NCBI GenBank assembly: GCA_036845805.1
Contig: DAIUDD010000001.1
Coordinates: 103,594 to 167,593 of the forward strand
Direction: 5' to 3'
From: Patescibacteria group bacterium
GTDB taxonomy: Bacteria; Patescibacteriota; Patescibacteriia; UBA2196
Length of the DNA: 64,000 nucleotides
Part shown: in pieces, positions 1 through 52,047 of the stretch
Position numbering within the stretch: position 1 is the first letter of the stretch
How the letters are laid out: every line of letters starts with the position of its first letter
Made by a program: the position numbers and the translations under genes
Notes under the pieces: model-generated
The model's database searches: none
What the model saw: the letters and a program-made list of their open reading frames with translations, nothing else
What the model was told of the DNA's origin: nothing

Positions 1-802
1 TGGTTCTGTTTTTGATGCGCCGGGTACTAATTACAAATTGCGCAATTCGACCGTAACTACCATTGCTCCAACTGGCACTATCTCTATTATTGCTGGTTGT
101 TCTTCAGGCATTGAACCGCTGTTTGCTGTTTGTTATACCCGTAAAAATATTTTAGACGCTGGCGATGAATTAATTGAAGTTAATCCATTGTTTTTAGAAA
201 TAGCTAAACGGGAAGGTTTTTATAGTCAAGATTTAATGCGTCGGGTGGCCGAACATGGCAGTGTTAAGGGGGTAGCTGGCGTGCCAGAAAAGTGGCAAGA
301 AGTTTTTGTCACCTCTCATGAAATCGAGCCAGAAATTCATGTGCGCACACAAGCAGCTTTTCAAAAACACACTGATAATGCCGTTTCTAAAACAGTGAAT
401 TTCCCTAATTCTGCCACCATGCAAGATGTTAAAGATGTCTACTTGTTAGCATATAAATTGGGTTGCAAGGGTATTACAATTTATCGCGATGGGTCGCGCG
501 ATTTACAGGTTTTAAATTTGGGTAGCGCCAAAACCCCAGAAGGGGACAGCGAAGTTAAAAATGAGATTGTGATTGAAAAAGAAGCGCAAACCGTGCCAGT
601 TAAAGTGGTGCAAACTTCCTTAACAGATTTAATTGGTGAGCAAGAAAAAGAAAATAAAAAAGAAATGAAAAACATGGATGAGATTAAAACTTTAGAAAAA
701 GAAAAAATAGAAAAATGTCCCGAATGCGGTCAGCAAATGGAAATAAAAGAAGGTTGTATGACCTGCCCGGTCTGCGGCTGGGGCAAATGCAGCTTGGGAT
801 AA
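1..802 (+). CDS. nrdJ: Adenosylcobalamin-dependent ribonucleoside-diphosphate/triphosphate reductase (class II, NrdJ), C-terminal part; 5' end outside window
   Basis: Frame 2 is open from nt 2. The motif DAPGTNYKLRNSTVTTIAPTGTISIIAGCSSGIEPLF is the class II RNR signature. C-terminal Cys4 zinc ribbon (CPECG...CPVCGWGKC). Confidence 0.85.
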   Translation, partial: GSVFDAPGTNYKLRNSTVTTIAPTGTISIIAGCSSGIEPLFAVCYTRKNILDAGDELIEVNPLFLEIAKREGFYSQDLMRRVAEHGSVKGVAGVPEKWQEVFVTSHEIEPEIHVRTQAAFQKHTDNAVSKTVNFPNSATMQDVKDVYLLAYKLGCKGITIYRDGSRDLQVLNLGSAKTPEGDSEVKNEIVIEKEAQTVPVKVVQTSLTDLIGEQEKENKKEMKNMDEIKTLEKEKIEKCPECGQQMEIKEGCMTCPVCGWGKCSLG

Positions 803-862: not shown

Positions 863-886
863 TCCGGACTTTAGTCCGGATTTTTG
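863..886 (+). terminator. Second, tandem hairpin terminator
   Basis: TCCGGACT-TT-AGTCCGGA 8-bp stem followed by TTTTTG. Confidence 0.5.
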
Positions 887-931
887 TTCTCATCCTTAAA
901 AAATGTTAAAATAAAAAATATAAATACTTTT

Positions 932-1480
932 ATGTCAAGTCATCAAAAGCCCAACCTTATTCTCATTTATACCGGTCATGGCAAAGGCAAAACCACTGCT
1001 GCGCTTGGCTTGATTTTGCGCGCTTTAAGAGAAAAAATGTCTGTTTTAATGATCCAATTCATTAAAAGTCAAAAAGATTCCGGTGAGGCTAATTTAAGGT
1101 CAATTTTACCCGAACTTAGAGTAAGAGCTTTTGGCAATGGTCTTGTTTTAAAAAAACCAACCGTCTCTCAAACATTTATTTTTAAAAAACAATCTAAGCA
1201 AGCATTAGCCTATATTATAAAAACCATAAAATCTAAAAAAGTCAATATTTTGGTTTTAGACGAAATTTGGGTCGCCTTGAGCTTGAAATTAATTAAAAAT
1301 AATGATATATTAGATATAATTAAAACTTTTCGTCTGTCAGGACCAAATCATTATTTGATTTTAACCGGTCGAAATTGCCCGAAAAGTTTTTATCAATATG
1401 CGGATTTGGTGACCGAAATGAAAGAAATCAAGCATCCGTTTAAAAAAGGGATTGGTGCGGTAAAAGGTATAGATTATTAA
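932..1480 (+). CDS. cobO: Cob(I)yrinic acid a,c-diamide / corrinoid adenosyltransferase (CobO/BtuR family)
   Basis: LIYTGHGKGKTTAALGLILRA P-loop is typical of CobA/CobO/BtuR. Start taken at the internal ATG at 932, because the track ORF start at 884 overlaps the upstream terminators. Confidence 0.7.
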   Translation: MSSHQKPNLILIYTGHGKGKTTAALGLILRALREKMSVLMIQFIKSQKDSGEANLRSILPELRVRAFGNGLVLKKPTVSQTFIFKKQSKQALAYIIKTIKSKKVNILVLDEIWVALSLKLIKNNDILDIIKTFRLSGPNHYLILTGRNCPKSFYQYADLVTEMKEIKHPFKKGIGAVKGIDY

Positions 1481-2025: not shown

Positions 2026-2043
2026 CTTTACTTCTATAAAAAT

Positions 2044-3227: not shown

Positions 3228-3303
3228 GGGCCCTTAGCTCATTTGGTAGAGCGCATCCATGGCATGGATGAGGCGACCGGTTCGATCCCGGTAGGGTCCA
3301 CCA
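3228..3303 (+). tRNA. tRNA-Ala (anticodon GGC), CCA encoded
   Basis: 73-nt cloverleaf with acceptor GGGCCCT/AGGGTCC carrying the G3:U70 identity pair. Anticodon loop ATGGCAT. T-loop TTCGATC. Confidence 0.85.
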
Positions 3304-3779: not shown

Positions 3780-3855
3780 GCCATTTTAGCTCAATTGGTA
3801 GAGCAACGGTTTTGTAAACCGTAGGTTCCCGGTTCGAGCCCGGGAAATGGCTCCA
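3780..3855 (+). tRNA. tRNA-Thr (anticodon TGT), CCA encoded
   Basis: Acceptor GCCATTT/AAATGGC. Anticodon stem ACGGT/ACCGT with loop TTTGTAA. T-arm CCCGG-TTCGAGC-CCGGG. Confidence 0.85.
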
Positions 3856-4542: not shown

Positions 4543-4617
4543 GGGGGTATAGTATAATGGCTATTATGCTGGTCTCCAAAACCAGAGATCTGGGTTCAAT
4601 TCCTAGTGCCCCCGCCA
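4543..4617 (+). tRNA. tRNA-Trp (anticodon CCA), CCA encoded
   Basis: Acceptor GGGGGTA/TGCCCCC. Anticodon stem CTGGT/ACCAG with loop CTCCAAA. T-arm CTGGG-TTCAATT-CCTAG. D-stem is weak. Confidence 0.8.
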
Positions 4618-20330: not shown

Positions 20331-20720
20331 GGTCCAGGTAGATGAGTGATCGCTTCGGCTTAATGTCGGGGAGGAAAGTCCGGACATCTCAATGTTAAGA
20401 CATTGAATAAAGATAATCGCGAAACGCGACCGAGTATAAGAATTACAATAAGAAAAATAGATCACGATCGTTTTATTTTTCTTTTGGTCAAATTCAAAAC
20501 TCCGAGCCAGTGCCACAGAAAATAAACCGCCCTGCATCCTACGTGGTGCAAGGTAAGGGTGAAAACGTGGTGTAAGAGACCACGCACTTCTATGGCGACA
20601 TAGATTTGGGTAAACCTTATCTGGTGCAAGTAGTAAAATCTACGCTTAGATAGATGATCACACTCATTCGCAATAATTAGCGTTTGGGACAGAATCCGGC
20701 TTATGATTCTGCCTGGACAT
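20331..20720 (+). ncRNA. rnpB: RNase P RNA (bacterial type A)
   Basis: GGAGGAAAGTCCGGAC (P4 5' strand), AGGGTGAAA, GGTAAACC, ACAGAATCCGGCTTA (P4 3' strand). P1 pairing GTCCAGGTAGA/TCTGCCTGGAC. Confidence 0.8.
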
Positions 20721-29887: not shown

Positions 29888-31066
29888 ATGGCTGAAATAA
29901 GCAAAAATAAACCCAAAATACTAATTTTTTCCCTAGCATATGCCCCTTTTATTGGTGGCGCCGAGATTGCTGTTCAAAAAATCACCAAACGTCTCAGTGA
30001 TTATTTTGAATTTGATGTCATAACTTGTAATTTAAATGGAAAACAAAAAGAGGAAGAATGGAACGAGGGGGTAAAAATTTATCGTGTCGGTAATAGTTGG
30101 ATTGGTAAACAATTTTTTCATTATCTATCTTATAAAAAAGCGATCGAATTACACCAGGAAAATAATTATCTGGCTATTTGGTCAATTATGGCTAATAGAG
30201 CTGGGTTGGCGGCATTGAAATTTAAAGAAAAATTTTCAGAAGTAAAATATTTGTTAACTTTGCAAGAAGGCGATCCGCTGTCGCATATTTATTGGCGCAC
30301 TTGGTTTTGGTGGTGGCGTTATAAAAAAATTTATCAACAAGCTGATCATATTCAGGTGCTTAGTGCCTGGTTGGAAAAACGCGCCAGGAAATTTGGTTAT
30401 CAAAAGGAAATTAGCATCGTGCCCAATGGAGTAGATATTAACAAATTCAAAACTCAAAATTCAGATGTTAAAATTATGGAAGAATTAGATATACCGAAAG
30501 ATACTAAAATTATTTTTACCACCTCGCGTTTAGTTAAAAAGAATAATGTGATGAGTTTGATTAAAGCCACGAAGATGTTATTAACCGATTATAAAATTCC
30601 AGTAAATTTACTTATTGCTGGCGAAGGTGAATTAAAAAAACGATTAAAATTTCTTACTCACCAATTAGCCATAAAAAAAGAAGTTAATTTTTTAGGTTAC
30701 ATTTACTCAGAAGATTTACCTAAATATTATAATCTGGCAGATGTTTTTGTCCGCCCCTCCTTATCTGAAGGCTTTGGAATTTCCTTTGTCGAAGCTATGT
30801 CTGCCGGCGTACCTGTTGTTGCTACACCCGTTGGTGGTATTCTTGATTTTTTAATTGACGGCGAAACTGGTTGGTTTTGTGAGCCAAAAAACCCTGAAAG
30901 TATTGCCGAAAAAATTAATTATATTTTAGATAAAAAAAATCAAGCTGAAGTTGAGCGGGTGGTAGCGAATGCCAAAAAAATGGTAATGGAAAAATATACT
31001 TGGGATGTGGTGGCCACTCAAATGAAAGAAGTTTTTGATAATCTTATAAAAAATAAGTATGTTTAA
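29888..31066 (+). CDS. Glycosyltransferase family 4
   Basis: SEGFGISFVEAMSAGVPVVATPVGGILDFL. Confidence 0.8.
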   Translation: MAEISKNKPKILIFSLAYAPFIGGAEIAVQKITKRLSDYFEFDVITCNLNGKQKEEEWNEGVKIYRVGNSWIGKQFFHYLSYKKAIELHQENNYLAIWSIMANRAGLAALKFKEKFSEVKYLLTLQEGDPLSHIYWRTWFWWWRYKKIYQQADHIQVLSAWLEKRARKFGYQKEISIVPNGVDINKFKTQNSDVKIMEELDIPKDTKIIFTTSRLVKKNNVMSLIKATKMLLTDYKIPVNLLIAGEGELKKRLKFLTHQLAIKKEVNFLGYIYSEDLPKYYNLADVFVRPSLSEGFGISFVEAMSAGVPVVATPVGGILDFLIDGETGWFCEPKNPESIAEKINYILDKKNQAEVERVVANAKKMVMEKYTWDVVATQMKEVFDNLIKNKYV

Positions 31067-32819
31067 AAATTTATCAAAAATCGAAAGGAATATTTTAATT
31101 GGAATTTTAATCCTTTCTTTTGTTTTAATTTTTTTTCGTCTCACCAGGGCCGATCTTCAAGGCGATGATGCTCATTATTCATTTCGTGCCATTGGATATT
31201 TTGATTTTATGTCTTCCGATTATGGACAGACCACCCCGATTCAGTGGTTTAAAGGTTATGCGCCCTGGTGGACCAAGCTTTCATTTCATGATCATCCGCC
31301 ATTAGTTTTTATAATTCAACATCTGTTTTTTAAAATTTTTGGCGTGAATGATTTCAGTGCCAAATTGCCATTTGCCATAGCTGGGTGGTGCTTGATTTAC
31401 ATCGTTTTTTTAATTGGCAAAGAGCTTTTTAATAATAAAGCCGGACTCTTAGCGGCCCTTTTTTTGGCCCTTAATAGTAATCATATTTGGATTTCACGCG
31501 TTGGTTATTTAGAAAGTATCGTTATTTTTTTTATAGCTCTTTGTTTGTTATTTTTAATTAAGGGAAATAAACAAAGTAAATATTTAATTTGGATGGGTGT
31601 TTGTTTGGGTTTAGCCATGATTAGTAAATATACTGCATTTTTGTTAATTCCGATTATTTTTATTTATGCTTTAATTAATTATAAAAACATATTTAAAAAT
31701 AAAAATTTTTGGCTCGGTCTTATTCTAGCATTAATTATTTTTTCTCCAGTAATTTTTTATAATATCAAAGTTTATCAAACCCGCGGCCACGCCGATGTGC
31801 AATTTACCGCCCTTTTAAATTTACCTAAAACCGATTGGCCAATTTTAGCTCAAAGATCAGTTTTACAAAGAGAAGCATATCCAACCATCTTTTTTTATCT
31901 TTTTAAAAATTTAGGTTCTTATACATCTTGGCCTCTATTAGCATTATTTTTTATTTCTTTTTTTTATCTTTTGGTTAAATTAATTTTTGTTCCAGAATTT
32001 AATAAACAAAAAAGTTATTCTTTTCTTTTTCTTGTTTTTATTTTTCTTTCATTTTTTTTTATAATTACTGGTTTAAACAACTCCTTTTATATTACACCCC
32101 TTAATTTTGTCACGGCTCTTTTTATGGGGGCCGCTTTGATTGATGTTTATAATCAAATTAGACATAAAAAAATTTTAACTTATGTTGCTTTTTGTTGTTT
32201 AATTATTTTTTCTATCTATTTTTTATTATTTATTTATAACACTAATCATCGCTTTGATCTGCATGAATCGAAATTTTTATTCGGCGCCAATCGTTTAGAA
32301 AATCTTGGCTTTCAGTCTCTAACAAAATTTATTTCTGATAATTTAAAAGGCAAATATGCTGGTACCATATCGATGAATTTTACTCCTCTACAACGTTATA
32401 ATCCTAACCAAGAAACCACTGGACCGTGGCATGGTAAAGAAGAAAATAGGATGATTTATATTTATGATGATAGTACACAGTGGTTTGCTCGCCTTTGGTA
32501 TTTAGAACGTTGGCGTTTATATTATTTTTTTCCTTTTATTGGTACCAAAGAATTAAGCAAATTAACTCTTAATAAAGATGAGATAAAAAACCAAGACTTA
32601 GTTTTTAAAGACGGTTTTTATTATTTGAAAAGCACTCAAGATATTCAATTAGATAAAAGCAACTCTTCTAATAATTGTGCCGCCGCTCTGCAGGACACTT
32701 TAGATAATTACCCTAACACAGAAGTAATTGAATTAAATAACGAAACTGGGCAGGCCATGTTTAAAGTTTATAAATTTTATGATCTTAAACCCTTTTTAGC
32801 TTGCGAAATGTTTTTATAA
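31059..32819 (+). CDS. GT-C fold membrane glycosyltransferase (ArnT/PMT-like)
   Basis: About 12 TMs. First loop DLQGDDAHY ... HDHPPLVF (DD/hPPL motifs). Confidence 0.65.
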   Translation: MFKNLSKIERNILIGILILSFVLIFFRLTRADLQGDDAHYSFRAIGYFDFMSSDYGQTTPIQWFKGYAPWWTKLSFHDHPPLVFIIQHLFFKIFGVNDFSAKLPFAIAGWCLIYIVFLIGKELFNNKAGLLAALFLALNSNHIWISRVGYLESIVIFFIALCLLFLIKGNKQSKYLIWMGVCLGLAMISKYTAFLLIPIIFIYALINYKNIFKNKNFWLGLILALIIFSPVIFYNIKVYQTRGHADVQFTALLNLPKTDWPILAQRSVLQREAYPTIFFYLFKNLGSYTSWPLLALFFISFFYLLVKLIFVPEFNKQKSYSFLFLVFIFLSFFFIITGLNNSFYITPLNFVTALFMGAALIDVYNQIRHKKILTYVAFCCLIIFSIYFLLFIYNTNHRFDLHESKFLFGANRLENLGFQSLTKFISDNLKGKYAGTISMNFTPLQRYNPNQETTGPWHGKEENRMIYIYDDSTQWFARLWYLERWRLYYFFPFIGTKELSKLTLNKDEIKNQDLVFKDGFYYLKSTQDIQLDKSNSSNNCAAALQDTLDNYPNTEVIELNNETGQAMFKVYKFYDLKPFLACEMFL

Positions 32820-32828
32820 ATTTAATTT

Positions 32829-33263
32829 ATGTTAACACAAATAATTAATTTAATTTGGCATCATTTTTTTTTAAAATTTAAACAATTTTTTAAATTTTGT
32901 GTTGTTGGAACTACTGGCGCGATCATTGATATTGGTGGCCTGTGGCTATTGGTTGAATTCGTTGGCTTATATTATTTGGTTGGCGCCACCATTTCTTTTG
33001 TGGCCGCTGTTATTAATAATTATTTTTTAAATAAATATTGGACTTTTAAAGATCAAAGCAAAATTAGTCTCGCACAATTTTTTTCATTTTCTATAATTAG
33101 TGTCATCGGTTTGGGTATTAATTTATTAACTATGTATATTTTTGTCGAATGTGTTAATTTAAATTATTTAATTAGCAAAGCCATTGCCTCCCTGATTGTG
33201 TTATCGTGGAATTTTTTAATGAATAAATACATCACCTTTAAAAAATCTTATGGCCCAGTCTAA
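32829..33263 (+). CDS. GtrA-family membrane protein
   Basis: FFKFCVVGTTGAIIDIGGLWLLVEFVGLYYLVGATISF...NYFLNKYWTFK is the PF04138 pattern. Four TM. Confidence 0.75.
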   Translation: MLTQIINLIWHHFFLKFKQFFKFCVVGTTGAIIDIGGLWLLVEFVGLYYLVGATISFVAAVINNYFLNKYWTFKDQSKISLAQFFSFSIISVIGLGINLLTMYIFVECVNLNYLISKAIASLIVLSWNFLMNKYITFKKSYGPV

Positions 33264-34413
33264 AAAAATTTTTATTGCTGCGGAAATTTTTCCGCCCGCT
33301 ATTGGTGGTCCGGCCACCTATGCCTTAGAGTTATCCAATGCCTTGCAACAACACAATTTTAAAGTTCGAATTTTGTGTTATGGTCGTCCCGACAAAACAG
33401 TTCTCAACCCAGGCATAAAAATAAACTGGGTTTCCAACAATTGGCCTTTATTTATTAAATATTTTTTATATTTTAAAAAATTGTTTTGCTTTTCCTTAAG
33501 ATATCGAACTATTTACGCCATGGGTCCAGTCGCTTCAGGTTTGCCAGCTTTTTTAGTTAAAAAAATTACTGGCAAAAAATTAATTGTTAAAGTTGTGGGC
33601 GACTATGCTTGGGAGCGAGCTTTTAATTCTGGTCAAACAAAATTTTTGCTTGACGATTTTTTAAACCAGGACAAACAAAGTAGTAAAATTAGTTATTTGC
33701 AAAAAATTGAACGCCTTGTTTGTTACTCCGCTGATTTAGTGATCACCCCGAGCGAATATTTAAAAGAGGTCGTCAAAAAATGGGGGATTACGGCAGAAAA
33801 AATAAAAGTTATCTATAACGCTTTTTTTATTCGTCCTGCCAACCCCAATCTAACACCCGGTCAAAAAACTGAAAAGAAAAAAGGATTAATTGTCTCTATT
33901 GGTCGGTTGGTTCCTTGGAAAGGTTTTAATGTTTTAATTAAAATTATGCCAGATTTATTAAAAAGAGAACCAAATTTTAATTTAAAAATTTTTGGCGATG
34001 GGCCAGAAAAAGAAAAACTGTATCAACTTATCAAAGAATTAAATTTAAATGAAAAAGTTACCATAGAAAAACTTGATCATGACGAATTAATGCGGCAGCT
34101 AATAGTTGCTGACATGTTTGTTTTAAATACTGGTTATGAGGGTTTATCACACAGCATTTTAGAAGCCTTTGCTGCCAATCTGCCAGTTATTACTACTTCC
34201 GTTGGTGGCAATTTGGAATTAATTAAAAATAATGAAAATGGTCTAATAATTGAATATAATAATAAAGAAGAGCTAAAAGAGTCAATTTTTACTCTTTACC
34301 AAAAACCAGATTTGTGTCAAAAATTTATAAACAACAGTAAAAATATATTAATAAAATTTGATCCTGAAAAAATAATCAAAGAAACAATAGAAGTTTTATC
34401 ATTATATGCATAA
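33250..34413 (+). CDS. Glycosyltransferase family 4
   Basis: YEGLSHSILEAFAANLPVITTSVGGNLELI. Confidence 0.8.
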   Translation: MAQSKKIFIAAEIFPPAIGGPATYALELSNALQQHNFKVRILCYGRPDKTVLNPGIKINWVSNNWPLFIKYFLYFKKLFCFSLRYRTIYAMGPVASGLPAFLVKKITGKKLIVKVVGDYAWERAFNSGQTKFLLDDFLNQDKQSSKISYLQKIERLVCYSADLVITPSEYLKEVVKKWGITAEKIKVIYNAFFIRPANPNLTPGQKTEKKKGLIVSIGRLVPWKGFNVLIKIMPDLLKREPNFNLKIFGDGPEKEKLYQLIKELNLNEKVTIEKLDHDELMRQLIVADMFVLNTGYEGLSHSILEAFAANLPVITTSVGGNLELIKNNENGLIIEYNNKEELKESIFTLYQKPDLCQKFINNSKNILIKFDPEKIIKETIEVLSLYA

Positions 34414-35875
34414 AGTAATTTTAGTGCAGCCGAAAAATAATGCTCTGGAAACAACCTATGCTCCTTTGGGTCTTTTAAGTTTGGCTGCCTATATTCGTTC
34501 TGAATTTGAGGTTAAAATTATTGATTTGCGTTTTACCACGACCAACGAACTTTATCAATTAATTAAAGACTGGCAACCACTCGCCGTTGGCTTTAGCATG
34601 TTAACTGGCAGCGCCATTACACAAATTATTGAAGTTTCACAATTTATTAAAGAAAATTATCCAGAAATTAAAACTATTGTTGGCGGCATTCACCCCACTT
34701 TTTTCCCCCAACAAACATTAGCTAATCAATACCTTGATTTTGTGGTAATCAATGAGGGTGAAAAAGTTATGCTTGATCTGCTCAAATCTTTGGTTGGCGA
34801 TCAAAATTTTTCCAATATTAATAATTTGTGTTGGAAAGATAAAAACCACGAAATACACTGTAACCAACTCAATGATAATTTTTTAAATCTTAATGATTTA
34901 CCCATGCCGGCCTGGGATTTAATTGATGTTACTCGTTATGTTAAAAATTTATCTACCAACCCGGGCGAGTATGTTATTGATTTTTATACCAGCAAGGGTT
35001 GCCCATTCCCGTGTAGTTTTTGTTATAATTTAAATTTTAATAAACGACAATGGCGCGCCAGAAGCGCTGAACGGGCAGTGGCAGAATTAGAATATTTATT
35101 TAATCAATATCATATTAATTATTTTATTATTCACGATGATAATTTTGTGGTTGATCGAGAACGCGCCCTAAAATTTGCCGAACTTATTCTTGCTAAAGGA
35201 TTAAAAGTCAAATATTCCGTTGATGCCAGAGTTGATTTTTTTGATTACAATTTTTTGCAAACTCTTAAAGAAAGTGGCTTGTGTGAACTTCGGGTTGGTT
35301 GTGAAAGTGGATCTAACCGATTGTTAAAAGAGATAATTGATAAACAAATTACCGTGGAACAAATTATTCGGGCGGTCGAGATAGCTAAAAGTTTGGATTT
35401 AAAAGTTCTCTTATCATTTGTTATCGCTTGGCCCACCGAAACAATTAAGGAAAGACAGGCGACAATTAATTTGATTCTTAAATTATTATCTCTTCATCCG
35501 GGCGCTTGGATTTATCCGCTCTGGATTTATATCCCTTATCCTGGTACCACCTTATTTAATAAAGCAACAGAATTGGGATTTCAAGCGCCTGAAAATTTAG
35601 AATCTTGGGGTAATTATTTCTGGAGCAAGGCCCATCTCCCTTGGCTTAACAAACCAAAAGAATATGAACTAATTCACGATTTAAGTCCGTTTGCTTGGTA
35701 TCAGCGTCCCTGGTCAGGTCTAAAAAATAAGTCTATAAAAAGTACTTTAAAGTTTGTTTTTATTAAATTTTTTCGTCAGTTTGTCTTGTTTCGTTTTAAA
35801 CACAATTTTTGGCTTTTTCCATATGAAGTTAAATTGGCAATCAATTTAAAAAAATTTTTTGCAAAAATCTATTAA
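34406..35875 (+). CDS. B12-binding domain radical SAM protein (class B radical SAM)
   Basis: N-terminal B12-binding Rossmann-like region (VILVQPKN...LGLLSLAAYI..., DxxG-type). CxxxCxxC cluster SKGCPFPCSFCYN. Confidence 0.8.
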   Translation: MHKVILVQPKNNALETTYAPLGLLSLAAYIRSEFEVKIIDLRFTTTNELYQLIKDWQPLAVGFSMLTGSAITQIIEVSQFIKENYPEIKTIVGGIHPTFFPQQTLANQYLDFVVINEGEKVMLDLLKSLVGDQNFSNINNLCWKDKNHEIHCNQLNDNFLNLNDLPMPAWDLIDVTRYVKNLSTNPGEYVIDFYTSKGCPFPCSFCYNLNFNKRQWRARSAERAVAELEYLFNQYHINYFIIHDDNFVVDRERALKFAELILAKGLKVKYSVDARVDFFDYNFLQTLKESGLCELRVGCESGSNRLLKEIIDKQITVEQIIRAVEIAKSLDLKVLLSFVIAWPTETIKERQATINLILKLLSLHPGAWIYPLWIYIPYPGTTLFNKATELGFQAPENLESWGNYFWSKAHLPWLNKPKEYELIHDLSPFAWYQRPWSGLKNKSIKSTLKFVFIKFFRQFVLFRFKHNFWLFPYEVKLAINLKKFFAKIY

Positions 35876-35892
35876 ATAAACTACTAAATTTT

Positions 35893-37050
35893 ATGAATAT
35901 TTTAATGCTTAGCTCGGACAAAACAGTTCTTAATGGCACAAGAATTGGCGACACAATTAACCGTCTGGAACTATATGGAAAAAATTTAACTTGGCTTGAT
36001 GTTGTTGTTTATGCTAATAAAAAAGAAAATTTTGATACTGTCAAAATTTCATCCAATGTCACCGGGATACCTTCAAATTCTTGGTCCAAATTATTTTTTT
36101 GTTTTGATGTTATAAAAATTTTTCACCGTCTTAATCTTAAACACAAAATAGATCTGATTATTGCTCAGGATCCTTTTATTTTTGCTTTGGCTGGTTGGTG
36201 GCTTAAGAAAAAATACAAAATCAAATTATTAATTCATTTTCATGGTGATTTTTGGCAAAATCCACAATGGCTCCAAGAAAAATGGTATAACATATTTCTA
36301 TTATTTTTAAGTTATTATACCGTTAAAAAAGCTGACGCCATTCGAGTTGTTTCGGCGGGTATTAAACAAAAATTAATTAGACGGGGGATTGGTGCCCAAA
36401 AAATAACAGTTATTTCGACTCCCGTAAATCTTAGATTATTTTTAATGGCAGACACCAAACAAAATCAATTAATAAAACAAAAATTTGGCCTCGTGTCAGA
36501 AGATAAGATAATTTTATTTGTTGGTCGTCTTGAACCGGAAAAAAATTTGTTGTGGTTTTTAGATGTTTTTAACGAGGTTATTAAACATGAACAATATGCC
36601 AAATTTTTAATTATTGGTACCGGCGGTGAAAGAAACAAAATAATTAAAAAAATAAAATTTTTAAATTTAACTAATAAAATAATTTTAATTGGAGGCATTA
36701 GTCATGCCGAACTACCTATTTATTATCATCTAGCTAATGTATTAGTTTTGCCTTCCACCTCTGAAAGTTTTGGCAAGGTTTTGGTCGAAGCCGGCGCTGC
36801 CGCCATACCGTGTGTGGCTTCGGCCACTACTGGTGCCAAAGAAATAATTAAAGATAATAAAACCGGATTTCTGGTACCCATTAATAATTTAGAAGAAATG
36901 AAAAATAAAATCCTGACCGTTTTAGCTGATAAAGAGTTGCAAAAAAAAATGGGCCAAACAGCCCAAAATTTTGTGAAAGAAAATTTTTCTCGCGAAATAT
37001 TAATTAAAAAAATAATTTATTTGTGGTCAAAAACAATCAACCAACTGTAA
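35893..37050 (+). CDS. Glycosyltransferase family 4
   Basis: SESFGKVLVEAGAAAIPCVASATTGAKEII. Confidence 0.8.
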   Translation: MNILMLSSDKTVLNGTRIGDTINRLELYGKNLTWLDVVVYANKKENFDTVKISSNVTGIPSNSWSKLFFCFDVIKIFHRLNLKHKIDLIIAQDPFIFALAGWWLKKKYKIKLLIHFHGDFWQNPQWLQEKWYNIFLLFLSYYTVKKADAIRVVSAGIKQKLIRRGIGAQKITVISTPVNLRLFLMADTKQNQLIKQKFGLVSEDKIILFVGRLEPEKNLLWFLDVFNEVIKHEQYAKFLIIGTGGERNKIIKKIKFLNLTNKIILIGGISHAELPIYYHLANVLVLPSTSESFGKVLVEAGAAAIPCVASATTGAKEIIKDNKTGFLVPINNLEEMKNKILTVLADKELQKKMGQTAQNFVKENFSREILIKKIIYLWSKTINQL

Positions 37051-37101: not shown

Positions 37102-37130
37102 TTGACACATTAGAATAATTTTGCTATAAT
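37102..37130 (+). promoter_or_regulatory. Sigma70-type promoter
   Basis: TTGACA, 17 bp, TATAAT. About 100-nt leader to the 37232 ORF. Confidence 0.45.
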
Positions 37131-37231: not shown

Positions 37232-37495
37232 ATGACTTTATTTTTTATTGGTATTTTAGAAATGTTTATTGCCACTGCTTGGACCAAGGTAGTTACCAAA
37301 TCGCAAATTTTTTCTAGCGGACTAATCACTTTTATTAATATTATTATTTGGTATTATGTTTTGGAAAAAATCGTCAGTGATATTAATAATTGGAAGATAG
37401 TTATCTTATATTCTCTTGGCTGTGCCCTGGGCACAATTTTAACCACTTATTATTTTAAACACAAAGAGAATAAACAGAACGCCATAGAGACATAA
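37232..37495 (+). CDS. Small 3-TM membrane protein, hypothetical
   Basis: 87 aa, hydrophobic. Confidence 0.4.
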   Translation: MTLFFIGILEMFIATAWTKVVTKSQIFSSGLITFINIIIWYYVLEKIVSDINNWKIVILYSLGCALGTILTTYYFKHKENKQNAIET

Positions 37496-37538: not shown

Positions 37539-38309
37539 TTAAATCTTTAAAGCGGGGTGTTTTAAATTATTTTTTAATTCTAATTTTATCTTATTTTCCA
37601 ATTCTTGTGGATGATGGCGACAATAAGATTCTAAATATCTGGCGGAAACATGGGCGGCTTGGGCGCCCTTTTTTATTTTATCTTTGTGGCGAATGTTAAA
37701 AAGCGTATTAATGTCATAACCCCAACCATTAGCCATTAAATTTCTTTCCCTTAATTCATGAATCAGCGTTAACTTTTTTTCTTTTTCATTTAAAACATTA
37801 TCAATCCAAATTTCATTTTTAGGAATAAAATTATAAACAAAACCATGGCCACCGGCGGTGAAATAAGTTAATAAAAAATCACGCACTAATCGACCGTCAA
37901 CTATCCAAATTTTAATCTGGTCATCGCTATATTTTGTCCATAATTTTTGATGAATCAGTTTCATTAATTCTCGCTTTTTATGTTTATTTTTTAATTTTTT
38001 TTTAATCCCTAACGACTGCAGACGTTCCAAATGTTCCATTTTATCAGCTTGGTTAAAAGCCCAATCATATTTTTTACCTTCAGCCATAAGCTTATGTTCC
38101 AAAAGTAAATGATTAATAAAAAATTTTTCTTCGCCCAAAACTTCAGTTTTATCTAACCAAAATTCATTGGTTGGAATAAAGCGGTAATGATAATGCTGTC
38201 CAAAATTAGAAAATTCAATATTAAAATGCTGGCGAATATAACTACCATCAACTATCCAAACTGTGATTTTGCCGATAGTTTTTATTTTTTTAAGACGCGG
38301 TTTTTTCAT
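37539..38309 (-). CDS. Hypothetical protein built from two tandem copies of an about 100-aa domain
   Basis: Residues about 16-110 and about 135-230 align: WIVDGxxxRxxFxxxFxxxGHxxxYxFIPxNExWxDxx...HELxExxLMAxGxxYDxAxN. Confidence 0.5.
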   Translation of the reverse strand: MKKPRLKKIKTIGKITVWIVDGSYIRQHFNIEFSNFGQHYHYRFIPTNEFWLDKTEVLGEEKFFINHLLLEHKLMAEGKKYDWAFNQADKMEHLERLQSLGIKKKLKNKHKKRELMKLIHQKLWTKYSDDQIKIWIVDGRLVRDFLLTYFTAGGHGFVYNFIPKNEIWIDNVLNEKEKKLTLIHELRERNLMANGWGYDINTLFNIRHKDKIKKGAQAAHVSARYLESYCRHHPQELENKIKLELKNNLKHPALKI

Positions 38310-38958
38310 GGTTTATTTTTTGTAATATTTTTATTTTTAAATATTTAATTATTTCTATAATAAATGGTAATAAGGAAACAAAGATAATTACTAAAACCAA
38401 AATTCCAAAATTGTCTTGCACCCAAGCAATATTGCCAAAAAAATAACCGCCAAAAACAAATAATGTGCACCACAAAAAAGCGCCTAATACATTATAAAAT
38501 AAAAAAATTGTATAAGACATTTTGCCAACGCCAGCTACAAACGGCGCAAAAGTCCTAATAATCGGAACGAAGCGGGCTAGAACAATAGTTTTTTTACCGT
38601 GTTTTTCATAAAATCTTTGGGCTTGCCACAGATGTTTTTTATTAAAAAAAAATGATCCTTCGCGTTTAAAAACTTTTGGCCCAATAAATTTTCCCAAGTG
38701 ATAATTAACAGTATCACCAATTATGGATGCTGTGAGGAAAATTAAAAAAGTTAATTCAATATTTAGCATATCTAAAGCTGCTAAAGCTCCAGCCGCAAAC
38801 AACAGACTGTCACCCGGTAAAAAGGGTGTTACAACCAGGCCGGTTTCAAAAAATACAACAAAAAATAAAAAAATATATGTTGTGGTTGAATAAACACTGA
38901 TTAGTTCTTGCAAATATCTATCAAGATGTAAGATTATATCAGCCAGTTTAAAAATCAT
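38290..38958 (-). CDS. DedA/VTT-family membrane protein
   Basis: GLVVTPFLPGDSLLFAAGALAA is the DedA core motif. Confidence 0.75.
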   Translation of the reverse strand: MIFKLADIILHLDRYLQELISVYSTTTYIFLFFVVFFETGLVVTPFLPGDSLLFAAGALAALDMLNIELTFLIFLTASIIGDTVNYHLGKFIGPKVFKREGSFFFNKKHLWQAQRFYEKHGKKTIVLARFVPIIRTFAPFVAGVGKMSYTIFLFYNVLGAFLWCTLFVFGGYFFGNIAWVQDNFGILVLVIIFVSLLPFIIEIIKYLKIKILQKINHEKTAS

Positions 38959-39985
38959 ATTTTTTTGTTAATTTATCTGAGATGAATTCATTAATTCCTT
39001 GGGAAAAATTACAGCCGACAATTCGGCAATATTTTTTACATTTTTTAAGTACTTTTCTTTCTCGGCTAGCATTTTTAAGAATTTTTTTTAATTCCTGCTG
39101 CACAACATTGCCAATCGGTCTCATCTTAAAACAAAAAGATGTGTCACCGTTGGGATAAATAACTAAATTACGTTGTCCGGCAAAACAACGAAATTTTAAA
39201 ACGCTTGATGGTTTTAAATAATATTCTTGCAGGGCTTTTATATTAACTAACGAATTTTTAATATTTTTTCTATTAGTCATTAGCCATGAAAAAAAATTAT
39301 TTACTTCTTTTTCATTTGGCCAGAGATCCGTCGGCAATTTATTATCAGCCATAAATTTTGACTCTTCCGATTCAATTTTTTCATCCAGTGGTTGCAATAT
39401 GATTTTTGTTTTTGGCAATGTTTGTAAAAATTTAATCAACGCTGGCGCTTCATTGATATTTTGAGCAGTAATAAGTAAGCCGATCTCCAATTCCACCTGT
39501 TTTTGATTAATAATTTCAATCGCTTTCTTAGCTTGTTCGTATGCCAATGAATATCCGCGCAAATAGTTATGTGTTTCTGGACTTAAGCTATAAAAAGATA
39601 ATTTAATATTATCTATGCCAGCATTTTTAAGTTTTTCTACCATTTCCTCATTAATTAATAAACCGTTGGTGTTAAGTGTTACTGTTTCAAAATGTTTTTT
39701 TAACTCTCTAATTATTTTTAACACCAAATTTTTTCTTATTAATGGTTCTCCCCCATTAATTTCTACAAAAGTTTTTGCTGGTAGTTCGTGATTTAATTTA
39801 TTTATTATATTTAACCAATCTTTTTCTTCTAATTCCGCGTTTGCTTCTTTTTGCCAAATAGTGCACGATTGACAACGAAAATTACATTTCATAGTAATAA
39901 TTAAACTTAAAAATGTGGGCTGGATAAAATGTTGACCAGTTTGATAACTTAATTCTTGAAAAAATTTACTAATTATTTTATTCAT
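38948..39985 (-). CDS. Radical SAM protein with C-terminal SPASM/twitch-like Cys-rich domain
   Basis: CNFRCQSC (CxxxCxxC). C-terminal FRCFAGQRN...CF...CKKYCRIVGCN cysteine cluster. Confidence 0.75.
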   Translation of the reverse strand: MNKIISKFFQELSYQTGQHFIQPTFLSLIITMKCNFRCQSCTIWQKEANAELEEKDWLNIINKLNHELPAKTFVEINGGEPLIRKNLVLKIIRELKKHFETVTLNTNGLLINEEMVEKLKNAGIDNIKLSFYSLSPETHNYLRGYSLAYEQAKKAIEIINQKQVELEIGLLITAQNINEAPALIKFLQTLPKTKIILQPLDEKIESEESKFMADNKLPTDLWPNEKEVNNFFSWLMTNRKNIKNSLVNIKALQEYYLKPSSVLKFRCFAGQRNLVIYPNGDTSFCFKMRPIGNVVQQELKKILKNASRERKVLKKCKKYCRIVGCNFSQGINEFISDKLTKKYDF

Positions 39986-40102: not shown

Positions 40103-41164
40103 ATGAATCTCCTTGTTTTTACTAGAAAAGTTGATCAACACGATGAGCGCGCCGGCTTTATGTCTGAATGGCTTACTTTTTTGGCTGCTCACTTAAATAA
40201 ATTAATTGTCATTTGCCAAGAAGTTGGTGATATTTCCGGTTTACCAAACAATGTCACGGTTTATTCATTGGGTAAGGAAAGTGGTAAAAGTAAGCTTTAT
40301 CAATTAGTCAAATGTCAAATGTTAATTGTCAAATGTTTGCCAAAAGTTGATGGTGTGTTTGTACATATGATTCCACACTATAGCCTTTTAGTTGGCCCTT
40401 GGTGTAAAATTTTTCATAAAAAATTAATTCAATGGTATGCGCATGGCACGGTTGACCGTTGGTTAAAATTGGCGCACTTTTGGATTGATGAATTTGTTAC
40501 TTCTTCTAAAGACGGTTTTCGTTTGATAACTAAGAAACCAGTTCATATTATCGGGCAGGGGATTAATATAGATAAATTTAAAAATCAAAAACCAAAAATT
40601 AAAATTAATGACAAATTTATTATCTTAACCGTTGGTCGGATTAGTCCGGTTAAAAATTTAGATATTTTAATTAAAGTAATTGAAAATATTCAACACACTG
40701 ATTCTGTTTTGCGCGATAAAATATTGTTACAAGTTATTGGTGGTCCTGGTTTACCGACTCAGGCGACATATCTTAAAGAATTAGAACAAGCAGTAACTGC
40801 TAAAAATTTAAATAATGTAATCGATTTTTTAGGTCCTCTGCCACCAAAAGAAATTTTACCATATTATCAAAACGCTGATTTGTTTATTAATTTATCAGAT
40901 ACCGGCTCACTAGATAAGGCGGTATTAGAAGCCATGGCTGCCGGCCTTTTAATCTTAACTGCAAATCCCGCCTATCAACACATTATTCCACAAGAATTAT
41001 TTTTACCTACTAAAGAAGTTAATTATATTACCCAAAAAATTACTGAGCTTTATCTCCTTCCGAGCGATAAAAAAAATATTTTACAAAACCAATTAACCAC
41101 TGAAGTTGAGCAAAATCATAATCTAAATAATTTTATTAAAAAAATCATTGCTTTATATGAATAA
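40103..41164 (+). CDS. Glycosyltransferase family 4
   Basis: SLDKAVLEAMAAGLLILTANPA. Confidence 0.7.
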   Translation: MNLLVFTRKVDQHDERAGFMSEWLTFLAAHLNKLIVICQEVGDISGLPNNVTVYSLGKESGKSKLYQLVKCQMLIVKCLPKVDGVFVHMIPHYSLLVGPWCKIFHKKLIQWYAHGTVDRWLKLAHFWIDEFVTSSKDGFRLITKKPVHIIGQGINIDKFKNQKPKIKINDKFIILTVGRISPVKNLDILIKVIENIQHTDSVLRDKILLQVIGGPGLPTQATYLKELEQAVTAKNLNNVIDFLGPLPPKEILPYYQNADLFINLSDTGSLDKAVLEAMAAGLLILTANPAYQHIIPQELFLPTKEVNYITQKITELYLLPSDKKNILQNQLTTEVEQNHNLNNFIKKIIALYE

Positions 41165-41813
41165 CGGATTATTAAATTTTGAAAATAATCGCTGGCAAAC
41201 AAAAGATCAAACCATGGAATTTCGCCATCGAGCAGCCTTGGGTTTGGTTACTGAAGGGCCAGTTTTAGATCTTGGTTGTGGCGATGGTTTGTTTTTAAAA
41301 TTATTACAAAATAAGGGGTTTATAGCCGAGGGAATAGATATTTCCTCAAAAGCCATTGAAAAATGTCAAAAACAAGGCTTAAAAGCCCAAATTTTAGACT
41401 TTACTAGCCAGGCCTTACTATATTCTGATCAAAACTTTAAAACTGTGGTTTTGCTTGATGTTTTAGAACACACCTATCAGCCAGAATTAATTTTACAAGA
41501 AGCCGCCCGAGTGTCATCAAAAAATATTGTTTTTAGCATACCAAATTTTAATTCTTTACCTGCTCGGCTGCAAGTTTTGATAGGCCGCGTGCCAGAAAAT
41601 AACCGCCCCAAAAAAGCTCATGTTTATTGGTTTAATTATGCGGTTATTAAAAAAATTTTAAAACAAAATAATCTAAAAATAATAACCATAAAAACTCACA
41701 CCTTTTGGCAGAATAAATTTTTAATAAAATATTTAATGAAGTTTTTGTTAAAAATCTGGCCAAGTTTATTCGCCTTAAGTTTTGTCATTAAAGCTCAAAA
41801 ATATGAACCGTAA
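41148..41813 (+). CDS. Class I SAM-dependent methyltransferase
   Basis: VLDLGCGDGLFLKLL motif I. IAEGIDIS motif II. Confidence 0.7.
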   Translation: MLYMNNGLLNFENNRWQTKDQTMEFRHRAALGLVTEGPVLDLGCGDGLFLKLLQNKGFIAEGIDISSKAIEKCQKQGLKAQILDFTSQALLYSDQNFKTVVLLDVLEHTYQPELILQEAARVSSKNIVFSIPNFNSLPARLQVLIGRVPENNRPKKAHVYWFNYAVIKKILKQNNLKIITIKTHTFWQNKFLIKYLMKFLLKIWPSLFALSFVIKAQKYEP

Positions 41814-51363: not shown

Positions 51364-52047
51364 ATGCTCAAACTTTCCATTATTATTCCAACATATAACG
51401 AAGAAAAAACCGTTTTAAAAATTATTAATCGGGTTGAGCGCGTTAAATTAGAAAATATTAATAAAGAAATAATTATCGTTGATGATGGTTCAACCGATCA
51501 AACAAAAGAAATTTTAAAACCATTGGAAGAAAAATATAAAATTATCTATCAGCCTAAAAATTTAGGTAAAGGCGCCGCAGTCAGAACCGCTCTTAACCAG
51601 ATAACCGGTGACATAGTTTTAATTCAAGACGCTGATTTAGAATATAATCCAGAAGAATATTCCAAACTATTAGATCCCATTATTAATCATGACCTTAACG
51701 TGGTATATGGTTCGAGAATGCTTGGTGCACACACCGCCACAAATTTTTATTATTATTTAGGTAATAAATTAATTACTTTTATTGCCAATCTCCTCTACAA
51801 CGCATCTTTAACTGACATAGAAACCGGGTATAAGGTTTTTCGTAAAGATGTTATAATTAATTTAAATTTAACCGCTAATGGTTTCGATATCGAGCCAGAA
51901 ATTACTGCTCAAATTTTAAAGAAATATAATATTCACGAAGTGCCTATCTCTTATTTTGGCCGGGATTTTTCGGAAGGTAAAAAAATTTCTTGGCGTGATG
52001 GTTTGCAAGCCATTCTTGTTCTTTTAAAATATAAATTTATTAACTAA
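51364..52047 (+). CDS. Glycosyltransferase family 2 (polyprenyl-phosphate sugar synthase-like)
   Basis: LSIIIPTYNEEKTV...IIVDDGSTDQT...IQDADLEY. Confidence 0.8.
   Translation: MLKLSIIIPTYNEEKTVLKIINRVERVKLENINKEIIIVDDGSTDQTKEILKPLEEKYKIIYQPKNLGKGAAVRTALNQITGDIVLIQDADLEYNPEEYSKLLDPIINHDLNVVYGSRMLGAHTATNFYYYLGNKLITFIANLLYNASLTDIETGYKVFRKDVIINLNLTANGFDIEPEITAQILKKYNIHEVPISYFGRDFSEGKKISWRDGLQAILVLLKYKFIN

Follow-up and report, generated by a model that had tools for sequence, protein, structure and literature searches.

A gene embedded among glycosyltransferase genes of a Patescibacteria group bacterium (assembly GCA_036845805.1) encodes a protein (here rSAM) whose domain architecture, motifs, and predicted fold identify it as a class B (B12-domain) radical SAM enzyme. 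A role of rSAM in glycan tailoring is well supported, and C-methylation is its most likely chemistry, with ring contraction or dehydration as the rivals. In the reading that we favor, with a probability of about 0.5, rSAM would be a membrane-associated, cobalamin-dependent enzyme that tailors a sugar during surface-glycan assembly by C-methylation of the lipid-linked sugar. The pairing of a B12 radical enzyme with glycosyltransferases recurs in many bacteria, suggesting an uncharacterized radical modification of a membrane-bound surface sugar. The window, i.e., the whole stretch of DNA that was analyzed, comprised 64,000 nt (contig DAIUDD010000001.1, positions 103,594 to 167,593 of the forward strand).

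The open reading frame named in the original prediction was present exactly as described (Table 1). Its claimed placement, overlapping an upstream GT4 gene by 8 nt, followed by a second GT4 gene, and lying inside a glycan locus, was borne out by the open reading frames and the Pfam matches. The gene belongs to a six-gene operon of the order GT4, PMT_2, GtrA, GT4, rSAM, and GT4, in which neighboring genes either overlap by 8 to 14 nt or are separated by gaps of 9 to 17 nt. The promoter scan of the window gave no excess over the shuffled expectation, so that the limits of the operon were set from the spacing and strand of its genes. The operon sits within a glycan region of more than 35 kb, which extends from about 28.6 kb to the window end, and further glycan genes are located at 13.6 to 23.5 kb, with a phosphoglycosyl transferase gene at 20801-22192. 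The public data contain one identical protein and about 55 homologues (58 to 81% identity, E down to 0), indicating that rSAM is not a chance open reading frame.

Table 1. Positions of the genes, domains, and motifs in the 64,000-nt window
Feature	Residues	Position (nt)	Strand	Basis or remarks
Vitamin-B12-dependent ribonucleotide reductase, C-terminal part		38..802		Best NCBIfam matches all vitamin-B12-dependent RNR models
CobA/CobO/BtuR corrinoid adenosyltransferase		884..1480	+	Pfam PF02572, 164.5 bits
GT4 glycosyltransferase, operon gene 1		29888..31066	+	Pfam; counterparts 42-43% identical in loci L001, L002, L004
PMT_2 (ArnT/PMT-like GT-C) glycosyltransferase		31059..32819	+	Pfam
GtrA-family small membrane protein, candidate polyprenyl-phosphate sugar flippase		32829..33263	+	Pfam
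GT4 glycosyltransferase directly 5' of rSAM		33250..34413	+	Stop overlaps rSAM start by 8 nt
Class B (B12-domain) radical SAM gene (rSAM)	1-489	34406..35875	+	ORF, ATG start, 489 aa; Pfam PF02310 + PF04055
Cobalamin-binding Rossmann domain	15-125	34448..34780	+	Pfam
Motif G62-x-S64-x-L66 (G62-F-S64-M-L66)	62-66	34589-34603	+	GxSxL type
Motif G93-G94	93-94	34682-34687	+	
Motif G118-E119	118-119	34757-34762	+	
Radical SAM core	195-357	34988..35476	+	Pfam
Cluster motif C199-PFP-C203-SF-C206	199-206	35000-35023	+	CxxxCxxC
Basic, aromatic C-terminal tail	430-489	35693..35872	+	Net charge +12; 17 aromatics; no transmembrane segment
GT4 glycosyltransferase, last gene of operon		35893..37050	+	17-nt gap from rSAM end
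GT (353 aa, Glycos_transf_1 only), then overlapping MetW-like class I methyltransferase		40103..41813	+	
Small GT2, candidate polyprenyl-phosphate sugar synthase		51364..52047	+	227 aa

The predicted combination of a B12-binding N-domain with a CxxxCxxC motif was confirmed by the profile check, in which the B12-binding profile PF02310 scored 75.7 bits (cut-off, 32.1) and the Radical_SAM profile PF04055 scored 71.4 bits (cut-off, 29.5). The three cysteines of the cluster motif are invariant in the alignment of 46 relatives. The features associated with cobalamin in OxsB, TsrM, and TokK are a GxSxL-type motif, GG on beta4, GE at alpha5, and a long loop without His (PMC9204698). Among the 46 sequences, S/T64, GG, and G118 were conserved in all and E119 was conserved in 39, and the beta1-alpha1 loop of rSAM (12 residues, aa 9 to 20) contains no His. 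The N-domain alone matched the cobalamin domain of OxsB (E 2e-7) with the motifs in register. DxHxxG was sought in the protein and was absent. The original prediction had regarded such an absence as refuting, but this does not hold, since the cobalamin of solved class B enzymes is base-off/His-off and DxHxxG has been termed "a bit of a red herring" (PMC9204698); the GxSxL, GG, and GE motifs are all present. rSAM is predicted to bind cobalamin.

The AlphaFold model of rSAM (pLDDT, 92.7; pTM, 0.90) has the overall fold of the solved members, and its top structural matches were class B enzymes without exception. The three-part fold, the GxSxL-type, GG, and GE motifs, the long His-less loop, and CxxxCxxC are shared with OxsB, TsrM, TokK, CysS, and MgmA. 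The identity to these enzymes is only 14 to 22%, however, none of them comes from a glycan locus, and their substrates differ (nucleoside, Trp, carbapenem, cystobactamid, and protein Gln).

As judged from its profile scores, rSAM is placed outside every characterized family that has an NCBIfam equivalog, all scores being far below the cut-offs. The best match was ApyD (NF050148; 181.2 bits versus a cut-off of 750). HpnJ (TIGR03471; 141.8 versus 577.6) and BchE (TIGR02026; 152.7 versus 481.35) were the second- and third-best models, and both matched 46/46 relatives. Among the models of C- and P-methyltransferases, HpnR (119 versus 650), KedN5 (74 versus 700), and MJ_0865 (84 versus 360) fell below their cut-offs, as did rSAM_ocin_1 (94 versus 282), PhpK (104 versus 600), and Sden_1168 (126 versus 575). 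None of the 46 relatives matched HpnR, KedN5, the MCR Gln methylase, the RiPP C-methyltransferase, PhpK, or the Sden_1168 P-methyltransferase better than E ~1e-57. Clustering with a housekeeping family (BchE or HemN-like), which had been named as evidence against the prediction, was not the case on scores and context: no chlorophyll biosynthesis genes occur among the window ORFs, and the B12 domain is at odds with a HemN-like (class C) identity. HpnJ identity was rejected on its score and on the lack of hopanoid (hpn/shc) genes in the window, and a phosphonate-tailoring role (Fom3/PhpK-like) was rejected because the window ORFs of 120 aa or longer included neither a PEP mutase nor any other gene of phosphonate metabolism. 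Methylases and non-methylases receive similar scores, so neither the fold nor the NCBIfam ranking is informative on the chemistry. The chemistry had also been called rare, which applies to characterized chemistry only; in genomes, proteins of this kind are very common, and 6,441 representatives of clusters were matched at E <= 1e-30.

The orthogroup (58 to 81% identity) seems confined to Portnoybacteria-like CPR. A scan of genome contigs with the single rSAM protein returned one locus only, in a Portnoybacteria MAG, so this assignment is based on that locus together with the source names. A glycosyltransferase gene lies directly 5' of rSAM in 7/7 orthogroup loci, and the upstream GT4 of the window shows no clear orthology to the glycosyltransferases in the other loci (25 to 36% identity). 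A GT4 or GT2 gene adjoins rSAM in 11 of 12 independent loci from several phyla, including Betaproteobacteria and Omnitrophota, and PMT_2 genes were found nearby in 8 of the 12. The relatives from other phyla that share 30 to 40% identity are likewise located among GT4, GT2, and PMT_2 genes. The best-conserved gene of the cluster is rSAM itself, with 62 to 66% identity versus 25 to 43% for the glycosyltransferases. GtrA was also present in L001, L002, and L004, and a GtrA-GT fusion was present in L004 and L012. The pair of a glycosyltransferase and a MetW-like methyltransferase recurs in L004, L013, and L014 (29 to 32% identity).

The small GT2 of the window is 46% identical to a GT2 beside PMT_2 in L004, and GT2 proteins of 230 to 251 aa are encoded close to rSAM in L008 and L012 to L017. 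The set of a small GT2, rSAM, and PMT_2 (with or without GtrA) recurs across loci. The small GT2 is read as GtrB/DPM1-like on the basis of its size and its placement beside PMT_2 in related loci. Gene fusions strengthen the association between rSAM and glycosyltransferases that had been noted from the single locus and that is conserved over the 12 loci. In one relative, found in two assemblies, rSAM is fused to a Bac_transf phosphoglycosyl transferase (P0149); others are fused to two GT2 and two class I methyltransferase domains (P0126), to a methyltransferase and Glycos_transf_1 (P0263), or to a class I methyltransferase (P0092, P0096, and P0186).

The C-terminal tail is kept across the 46 relatives, with means of +10.5 in charge and 11 aromatic residues over about 65 aa, compared with a charge of about +2 for the body of the protein. 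In the P0149 fusion, it runs straight into the hydrophobic helix of the phosphoglycosyl transferase. The conservation of this basic, aromatic tail suggests membrane association, and the tail is proposed to be a peripheral membrane anchor.

The following course of the reaction is proposed. Held by its tail, rSAM would be positioned at the cytoplasmic membrane face alongside the glycosyltransferases of the operon. Reductive cleavage of SAM at the [4Fe-4S] cluster (C199/C203/C206) would yield a 5'-deoxyadenosyl radical, and this radical would remove hydrogen from a sugar carried on polyprenyl phosphate or polyprenyl diphosphate, at one of its unactivated carbons. The cobalamin, bound base-off and His-off and carrying a methyl group from a second SAM, would then donate that group to the substrate radical, forming a C-methylated sugar. 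The modified unit may be lengthened by the adjoining GT4 enzymes and/or moved across the membrane (GtrA, Wzx), and the PMT_2 GT-C enzyme would pass it to its acceptor.

This course has parallels in known pathways. PMT_2 enzymes use polyprenyl-phosphate sugar donors on the outer side of the membrane. Lipid-linked sugars are tailored before flipping by ArnC/ArnD/ArnT (Und-P-Ara4N) and by DprE1/E2 (decaprenyl-P-ribose to -arabinose); in such pathways, a GT2 makes the polyprenyl-phosphate sugar, tailoring takes place in the cytoplasm, a small membrane protein flips the product, and a PMT_2/ArnT-type GT-C enzyme transfers it. By analogy, the rSAM locus may resemble these pathways in its set of a small GT2 and PMT_2 (with or without GtrA), whereas tailoring in the Arn and DprE pathways is done by a deformylase and an oxidoreductase pair rather than by radical SAM enzymes. 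MoeK5 acts on a lipid-linked sugar that glycosyltransferases of the same cluster produce, and the same logic is proposed for the rSAM locus. MoeK5 (moenomycin) and GenK/GenD1 (gentamicin) are Csp3 methylases and provide the sugar precedents (PMC9204698, PMC12931638). They have the class B architecture of rSAM, and their target is a sugar carbon that is modified once glycosyl transfer has taken place, but they belong to actinomycete antibiotic (secondary-metabolite) clusters and not to surface-glycan loci. The rSAM family, likened to them here by architecture and pathway logic, differs further in its own conserved C-terminal tail, its ferredoxin partner, and its GT4/GT2/PMT_2 partners. C-methyltransferases far outnumber any other group of B12 radical SAM enzymes (PMC12931638), and we infer that the reaction of rSAM is a methylation as well. 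No characterized B12 radical SAM enzyme from an O-antigen, capsule, EPS, S-layer, or CPR glycan locus was found in the literature, the coverage of which was incomplete.

None of the results on sequence, fold, or context tells methylation apart from a ring contraction, a dehydration, or another radical reaction. Of the original prediction, the class B enzyme in a glycan operon is supported, while the reaction, a radical C-methylation or ring modification, is given in terms of probability. A non-methylating class B enzyme that rearranges the lipid-linked sugar, for example by ring contraction to a carbocyclic cyclitol with cobalamin as a radical relay, is unlikely. Reviews credit cobalamin-dependent radical SAM enzymes with ring contractions and oxidations too, and the high ranks of HpnJ and BchE are in line with such a rearrangement. 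HpnJ, a B12-domain radical SAM enzyme of hopanoid cyclitol ether formation, has been proposed to follow the glycosyltransferase HpnI and to modify a sugar that is lipid-linked, which resembles the pathway logic proposed here (PMC13459092). The scores of both models are nevertheless far under the cut-offs, neither hopanoid nor chlorophyll genes are present in the window, and non-methylases are a minority among the characterized class B enzymes. The ring contraction proposed for HpnJ, in place of methylation, is itself unproven.

It is similarly improbable that rSAM is a class B methylase of a soluble nucleotide-activated sugar or of an O-methyl group (methoxy to ethoxy, CndI-type) introduced by a class I methyltransferase. 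The substrate of Fom3 is cytidylylated, which fits the former, and NDP-sugar pathway genes were found in the window and in related loci. The relatives are repeatedly fused to or located beside class I methyltransferases, which would fit consecutive action on one site, and CndI is counted among the single-methylation class B enzymes. The immediate neighbors of rSAM, however, are glycosyltransferases and not nucleotidyltransferases or dehydratases, and the fusions to phosphoglycosyl transferase and glycosyltransferase domains, together with the conserved tail, point to the membrane. The class I methyltransferase of the window is 5 kb away and is paired with another glycosyltransferase. The preferred substrate of rSAM is accordingly put as probably lipid-linked rather than an NDP-sugar.

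An AprD4-like, cobalamin-independent sugar dehydratase (or dehydrogenase/epimerase) that deoxygenates or isomerizes the glycan sugar, with a purely structural N-terminal Rossmann domain, is quite improbable. AprD4, the apramycin 1,2-diol dehydratase (PDB 6fd2), does not bind cobalamin (PMC12931638), whereas the N-domain of rSAM carries the full cobalamin motif set and, searched alone, gave no sequence match to AprD4; rSAM also scored far below the cut-off of the AprD4 equivalog NF033070, and AprD4 family membership was rejected. That rSAM is not a glycan enzyme but a RiPP/protein- or lipid-modifying class B enzyme merely near glycosyltransferases is highly improbable: although its top match is the RiPP enzyme ApyD and it also matched RiPP C-methyltransferases and ladderane-type lipid enzymes, the ApyD score is below the cut-off and no precursor-like context was seen, the sole small plus-strand ORF found beside the operon encodes a DUF5698 membrane protein of 87 aa, neither a peptidase nor a RiPP transporter was found among the operon genes, and the adjacency to glycosyltransferases across phyla and the fusions argue against it.

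Corrinoid-use genes were present at the window start, as had been claimed. The fragment of a B12-dependent ribonucleotide reductase and the corrinoid adenosyltransferase indicate that the organism uses corrinoids, which lends indirect support to the predicted binding of cobalamin by rSAM. Their suggested link to rSAM holds at the level of the organism only and not at that of the locus; they are 33 kb from the rSAM gene. The adenosyltransferase presumably makes AdoCbl for the adjacent reductase; to our knowledge, AdoCbl is not needed by a class B radical SAM methylase. The gene of a 75-aa ferredoxin, a candidate electron donor, is located beside the rSAM orthologue in four loci. In three of them (L012 to L014), the two genes share 8 nt, and in the fourth (L002), the ferredoxin gene is convergent, just 3' of rSAM, and beside a Pyr_redox_2 reductase, NifU, and NifS. 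Neither a ferredoxin nor a second B12 radical SAM gene was detected in the window by tblastn.

Class B radical SAM enzymes are among the largest enzyme groups of unknown function, and the characterized sugar-acting members known to us are all from antibiotic pathways. More broadly, we tentatively suggest, as a reading that falls short of even odds, that the rSAM family may be membrane-associated glycosyltransferase partners that carry out radical C-alkylation (or a carbocycle-forming rearrangement) on polyprenyl-linked sugars in surface-glycan assembly. If so, surface glycans with C-methylated, C-ethylated, or carbocyclic sugars would be common in CPR, Omnitrophota, and other uncultured lineages; we found no report of such sugars in bacterial cell envelopes. 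Genome-reduced CPR bacteria would then spend scavenged B12 on surface decoration, and their dependence on scavenged cobalamin would go beyond ribonucleotide reduction. The locus also bears on CPR surface structures, which are presumed to mediate host attachment and are chemically uncharted. The conserved, translationally coupled GT/rSAM(/ferredoxin) cassette of surface-glycan loci provides a testable entry point, since the operon is defined, candidate substrates can be named, and relatives encode a cognate reductant; it could yield a new substrate class for class B enzymes. If rSAM is a plain MoeK5-like sugar C-methylase, it would be a familiar enzyme type in an unusual organism. In this broader sense, the family occurs widely across CPR, Omnitrophota, and other uncultured lineages, and its loci often carry several paralogues.

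The gene at 34406-35875 starts with ATG and encodes a 489-aa protein with a B12-binding domain (PF02310, residues 15 to 125, 75.7 bits against a Pfam gathering score of 32.1), a Radical_SAM domain (PF04055, residues 195 to 357, 71.4 bits against 29.5) and the cluster motif C199-PFP-C203-SF-C206. It is the fifth of six same-strand genes (GT4, PMT_2, GtrA, GT4, radical SAM, GT4) with overlaps of 8 to 14 nt or gaps of 9 to 17 nt between them, and these were therefore read as a single operon. The open reading frame, its domains, the flanking GT4 genes, the 8-nt overlap with the upstream one, the surrounding glycan locus and the corrinoid genes at the window start were all confirmed as originally predicted. 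The G+C content of the window is about 32%, and the composition at the radical SAM gene shows no anomaly. The nearest named homologues are from Candidatus Portnoybacteria or Patescibacteria, an identical protein is also on record, and the source genome is taken to be CPR. In the 490-nt gap 3' of the operon is a sigma-70 promoter that fits the consensus perfectly (TTGACA, 17 nt, TATAAT and a TG extension; 12/12 matches), and about 100 nt past it is an 87-aa small membrane ORF (DUF5698, 32.5 bits against 27.5).

Features of the window and of related loci (L numbers, public contigs carrying relatives of the radical SAM protein)
Feature	Positions	Strand	Remark
B12-dependent ribonucleotide reductase, C-terminal part	window start
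CobA/CobO/BtuR corrinoid adenosyltransferase	window start
tRNA	1943-2025	+	Rfam, 53 bits
Trp/Tyr tRNA synthetase ORF	2002-3180	+	class I; called TTG start
tRNAs	3228-3300, 3780-3852, 4543-4614
GT-C enzymes	13641-15371, 15391-16284		with next two GT-C rows: one AftA-like, three PMT_2-type
GT-C enzyme	18666-20246	-
RNase P RNA	20334-20720
Bac_transf priming transferase	20801-22192
Por_Secre_tail protein	23536-25008	-	490 aa
GT4	29888-31066	+	operon gene 1
PMT_2-type GT-C	31059-32819	+	operon
GtrA	32829-33263	+	operon
GT4	33250-34413	+	stop overlapped by radical SAM gene
B12-domain radical SAM protein	34406-35875	+	operon
GT4	35893-37050	+	17-nt gap after radical SAM gene
Sigma-70 promoter	37102-37130	+
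Small membrane ORF	37232-37495	+	87 aa
256-aa protein	37539-38309	-	no Pfam/NCBIfam match
DedA-family protein	38290-38958	-	passes NF008102
Radical SAM/SPASM	38948-39985	-
AsnB-type glutamine amidotransferase	42737-44563	+
TylC3-type NDP-hexose C-methyltransferase	46752-47990	+	Methyltransf_13/14
Epimerase/dehydratase-RmlD-cupin fusion	47998-50280	+	760 aa; cupin RmlC/FdtA-like
NodU-like carbamoyltransferase	52522-54282	+
Radical SAM/SPASM	56587-57627	-
75-aa ferredoxin	L012 10523-10750
75-aa ferredoxin	L013 10463-10690
75-aa ferredoxin	L014 10493-10720
75-aa ferredoxin	L002 9508-9735	-	convergent, just downstream of radical SAM gene
SPASM radical SAM	L015 14278-15435

The absence of a DxHxxG motif had been proposed as grounds for rejecting the assignment. 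This test is invalid, because the cobalamin of OxsB, TsrM and TokK is in the base-off, His-off state, and the motif has been called "a bit of a red herring" (PMC9204698). The cobalamin contacts are instead made by a downstream GxSxL-type motif, a Gly-Gly, a Gly-Glu at helix 5 and a long His-less beta1-alpha1 loop (PMC9204698). All of the relevant motifs were found in the target (G62-F-S64-M-L66, G93-G94 and G118-E119), along with a 12-residue loop (residues 9 to 20) without His. In an alignment of 46 relatives with identities down to 28%, S/T64, G93, G94 and G118 were invariant, and position 119 was Glu in 39 sequences and Asp in 6. The N-terminal 160 residues alone matched the cobalamin domain of OxsB (E, 2e-7) with the motifs in register, and weakly matched TokK and a corrinoid protein. 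L66 aligned with OxsB Asn186, which sits beneath the cobalt; Leu or Met occupied this position in 43/46 sequences, indicating that a non-coordinating side chain is to be expected there. Assignment of the target to the class B radical SAM enzymes is well supported, with cobalamin binding very probable. The predicted fold confirms the class but cannot select the chemistry.

The target did not reach any curated NCBIfam equivalog cut-off, scoring 181 bits for ApyD (cut-off, 750), 153 for BchE (481), 142 for HpnJ (578), 126 for Sden_1168 (575), 119 for HpnR (650) and 106 for AprD4 (500). The best E value of the 46 relatives against any NCBIfam model was about 1e-57. Among 1.84 billion cluster representatives, 49,146 matched at E ≤ 1e-3 and 6,441 at E ≤ 1e-30. 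The orthogroup of close homologues collapses into one 50% cluster, beyond which there are a few relatives at 40 to 47% identity and a very large set of full-length relatives (about 480 to 500 aa) at 30 to 38%. The shortfall against NCBIfam together with these matches places the target in a big subfamily outside every curated model tested, and no characterised member of it was found. In one homologue, P0128 (818 aa), the B12 domain is separated from the radical SAM core by an intein that contains a LAGLIDADG endonuclease domain.

The gene neighbourhood was compared across 12 nonredundant loci, seven of which (the window, L001, L002, L004, L012, L013 and L014) belong to the orthogroup, at 62 to 71% identity. 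A glycosyltransferase was directly adjacent to the radical SAM gene in 11/12 loci; in all seven orthogroup loci it immediately preceded the radical SAM gene, with an overlap or a distance of at most about 80 nt, and GtrA and PMT_2 were usually close. The radical SAM gene was the best conserved of the cluster, at 62 to 66% identity versus 25 to 43% for the glycosyltransferases, and the upstream GT4 of the window is not clearly orthologous to the partner GT4 in L004 and L012 to L014. A pair of an approximately 350-aa glycosyltransferase and a MetW-like methyltransferase was common to the window, L004, L013 and L014, and a TylC3-like C-methyltransferase co-occurred in L013 and L014, as in the window. 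Several loci had one or two additional B12 radical SAM paralogues (29 to 35% identical to the target); in the window the target is the only one. More distantly, the radical SAM gene of a betaproteobacterial locus (39% identity) was flanked by GT4 genes, and the locus also had a Wzi/PAP2 gene. In an Omnitrophota locus there were four intact B12 radical SAM genes and a fifth split in two; one of the intact genes carries a class I methyltransferase fusion, and a small GT2 and PMT_2 come next. L015, L016 and L017 (31 to 33%) had radical SAM pairs next to a GT2 of about 230 to 250 aa and PMT_2, with carbamoyltransferase and SPASM radical SAM genes, the same inventory as the window; in L015 the carbamoyltransferase accompanies the pair.

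A 75-aa ferredoxin gene (Fer4_13/Fer4_15) overlapped the 3' end of the radical SAM gene by 8 nt in L012, L013 and L014. In L002 it adjoins a Pyr_redox_2 reductase, NifU and NifS. A dedicated electron supply is plausible for these orthologues; no ferredoxin of this type was found in the window.

Fusions were read among the top cluster representatives. P0149, present in two assemblies, joins B12 radical SAM to Bac_transf, a phosphoglycosyl transferase; P0263 is methyltransferase, Glycos_transf_1 and radical SAM; and P0186, P0092 and P0096 are radical SAM with a class I methyltransferase. P0126 (1,879 aa; radical SAM, methyltransferase, GT2, methyltransferase, GT2 and radical SAM) is single in two JGI contigs but split into two proteins in an ENA contig, making this fusion less certain. 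Residues 430 to 489 of the target carry a net charge of +12, include 17 aromatic residues and contain no transmembrane segment. The tail of the 46 relatives (about 65 residues) averages +10.5 with 11 aromatics, versus about +2 for their 430-residue body, and that of P0149 runs straight into the hydrophobic helix opening the phosphoglycosyl transferase domain. The basic, aromatic tail may be a peripheral membrane anchor on the cytoplasmic face.

A role of the target in glycan assembly together with glycosyltransferases is well supported. The context suggests that its substrate is a polyprenyl-phosphate- or diphosphate-linked sugar and that the reaction takes place at the membrane: the set of small GT2, tailoring enzyme, GtrA and PMT_2 resembles the lipid-linked sugar pathways of ArnC/ArnD/ArnT and of decaprenyl-P-ribose to -arabinose. 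Going by precedent, the reaction would be a C-methylation, as C-methyltransferases are the predominant group among characterised class B enzymes (PMC12931638) and GenK, GenD1 and MoeK5 act on sugars (PMC12931638, PMC9204698). Ring contraction of a lipid-linked sugar, of the HpnJ or Cds type (PMC13459092), is a real rival. So is a methylase acting on an NDP-sugar or on an O-methyl group (CndI type); the frequency of class I methyltransferase fusions could point to this reading. AprD4-type dehydration is also a real rival; AprD4, a sugar diol-dehydratase, does not bind cobalamin (PMC12931638), whereas the target has the cobalamin motifs, and the sequence likeness is restricted to the radical SAM core (residues 152 to 392), the N-terminal 160 residues giving no match. 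A non-glycan substrate is unlikely in this glycosyltransferase setting. Of the predicted C-methylation or ring modification, the enzyme class and glycan context hold, and the chemistry is unproven.

The 2022 and 2026 reviews of B12 radical SAM enzymes list no surface-glycan substrate (PMC9204698, PMC12931638), and the words "glycan" and "polysaccharide" are absent from the latter. A full-text search combining these enzymes with O-antigen, capsule, EPS, S-layer or CPR returned nothing relevant, with incomplete coverage that leaves absence unproven. The target represents a distinct subfamily, as yet uncharacterised, within a well-known class of enzymes. Its partnership with glycosyltransferases is conserved, and it is a good, testable lead for enzymology. 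Specialists in radical SAM chemistry would probably find it unsurprising, given that class B already includes thousands of enzymes without an assigned function.

The ribonucleotide reductase and adenosyltransferase genes show that corrinoids are both acquired and used by the cell; no corrinoid transporter was found in the window. The adenosyltransferase product, AdoCbl, is the cofactor of the reductase; a class B radical SAM methylase can do without it. The proposed link to these genes stands as far as corrinoid use by the cell, but they are 33 kb away and not cotranscribed with the radical SAM gene.

Outside the operon, the window is largely a glycan region, with many GT4 and GT2 genes, a MetW-like methyltransferase and a Wzx-type flippase. 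With four GT-C enzymes within 20 kb, glycosyltransferases of the periplasmic face are unusually dense for a genome of about 0.7 Mb. The NodU-like and AsnB-type genes suggest carbamoylated and amidated sugars. The TylC3-type gene and the following fusion (RmlD part, TIGR01214, 321 bits against 224) indicate that the locus already has a conventional pathway for making a C-methyl-branched deoxysugar. Neither SPASM protein of the window reached an NCBIfam equivalog. The first forms a minus-strand trio with the DedA-family protein and the 256-aa protein, which by eye apparently consists of two tandem units of about 120 aa (W-I-V-D-G ... F-I-P-x-N-E-x-W-[LI]-D ... H-x-L-x-E). The Por_Secre_tail match (type IX secretion C-terminal sorting, 33.6 bits against 27) is unexpected in a Patescibacteria genome, because this signal is typical of Bacteroidota. 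The first tRNA overlaps the called TTG start of the tRNA synthetase gene, indicating that its true start is probably further downstream.
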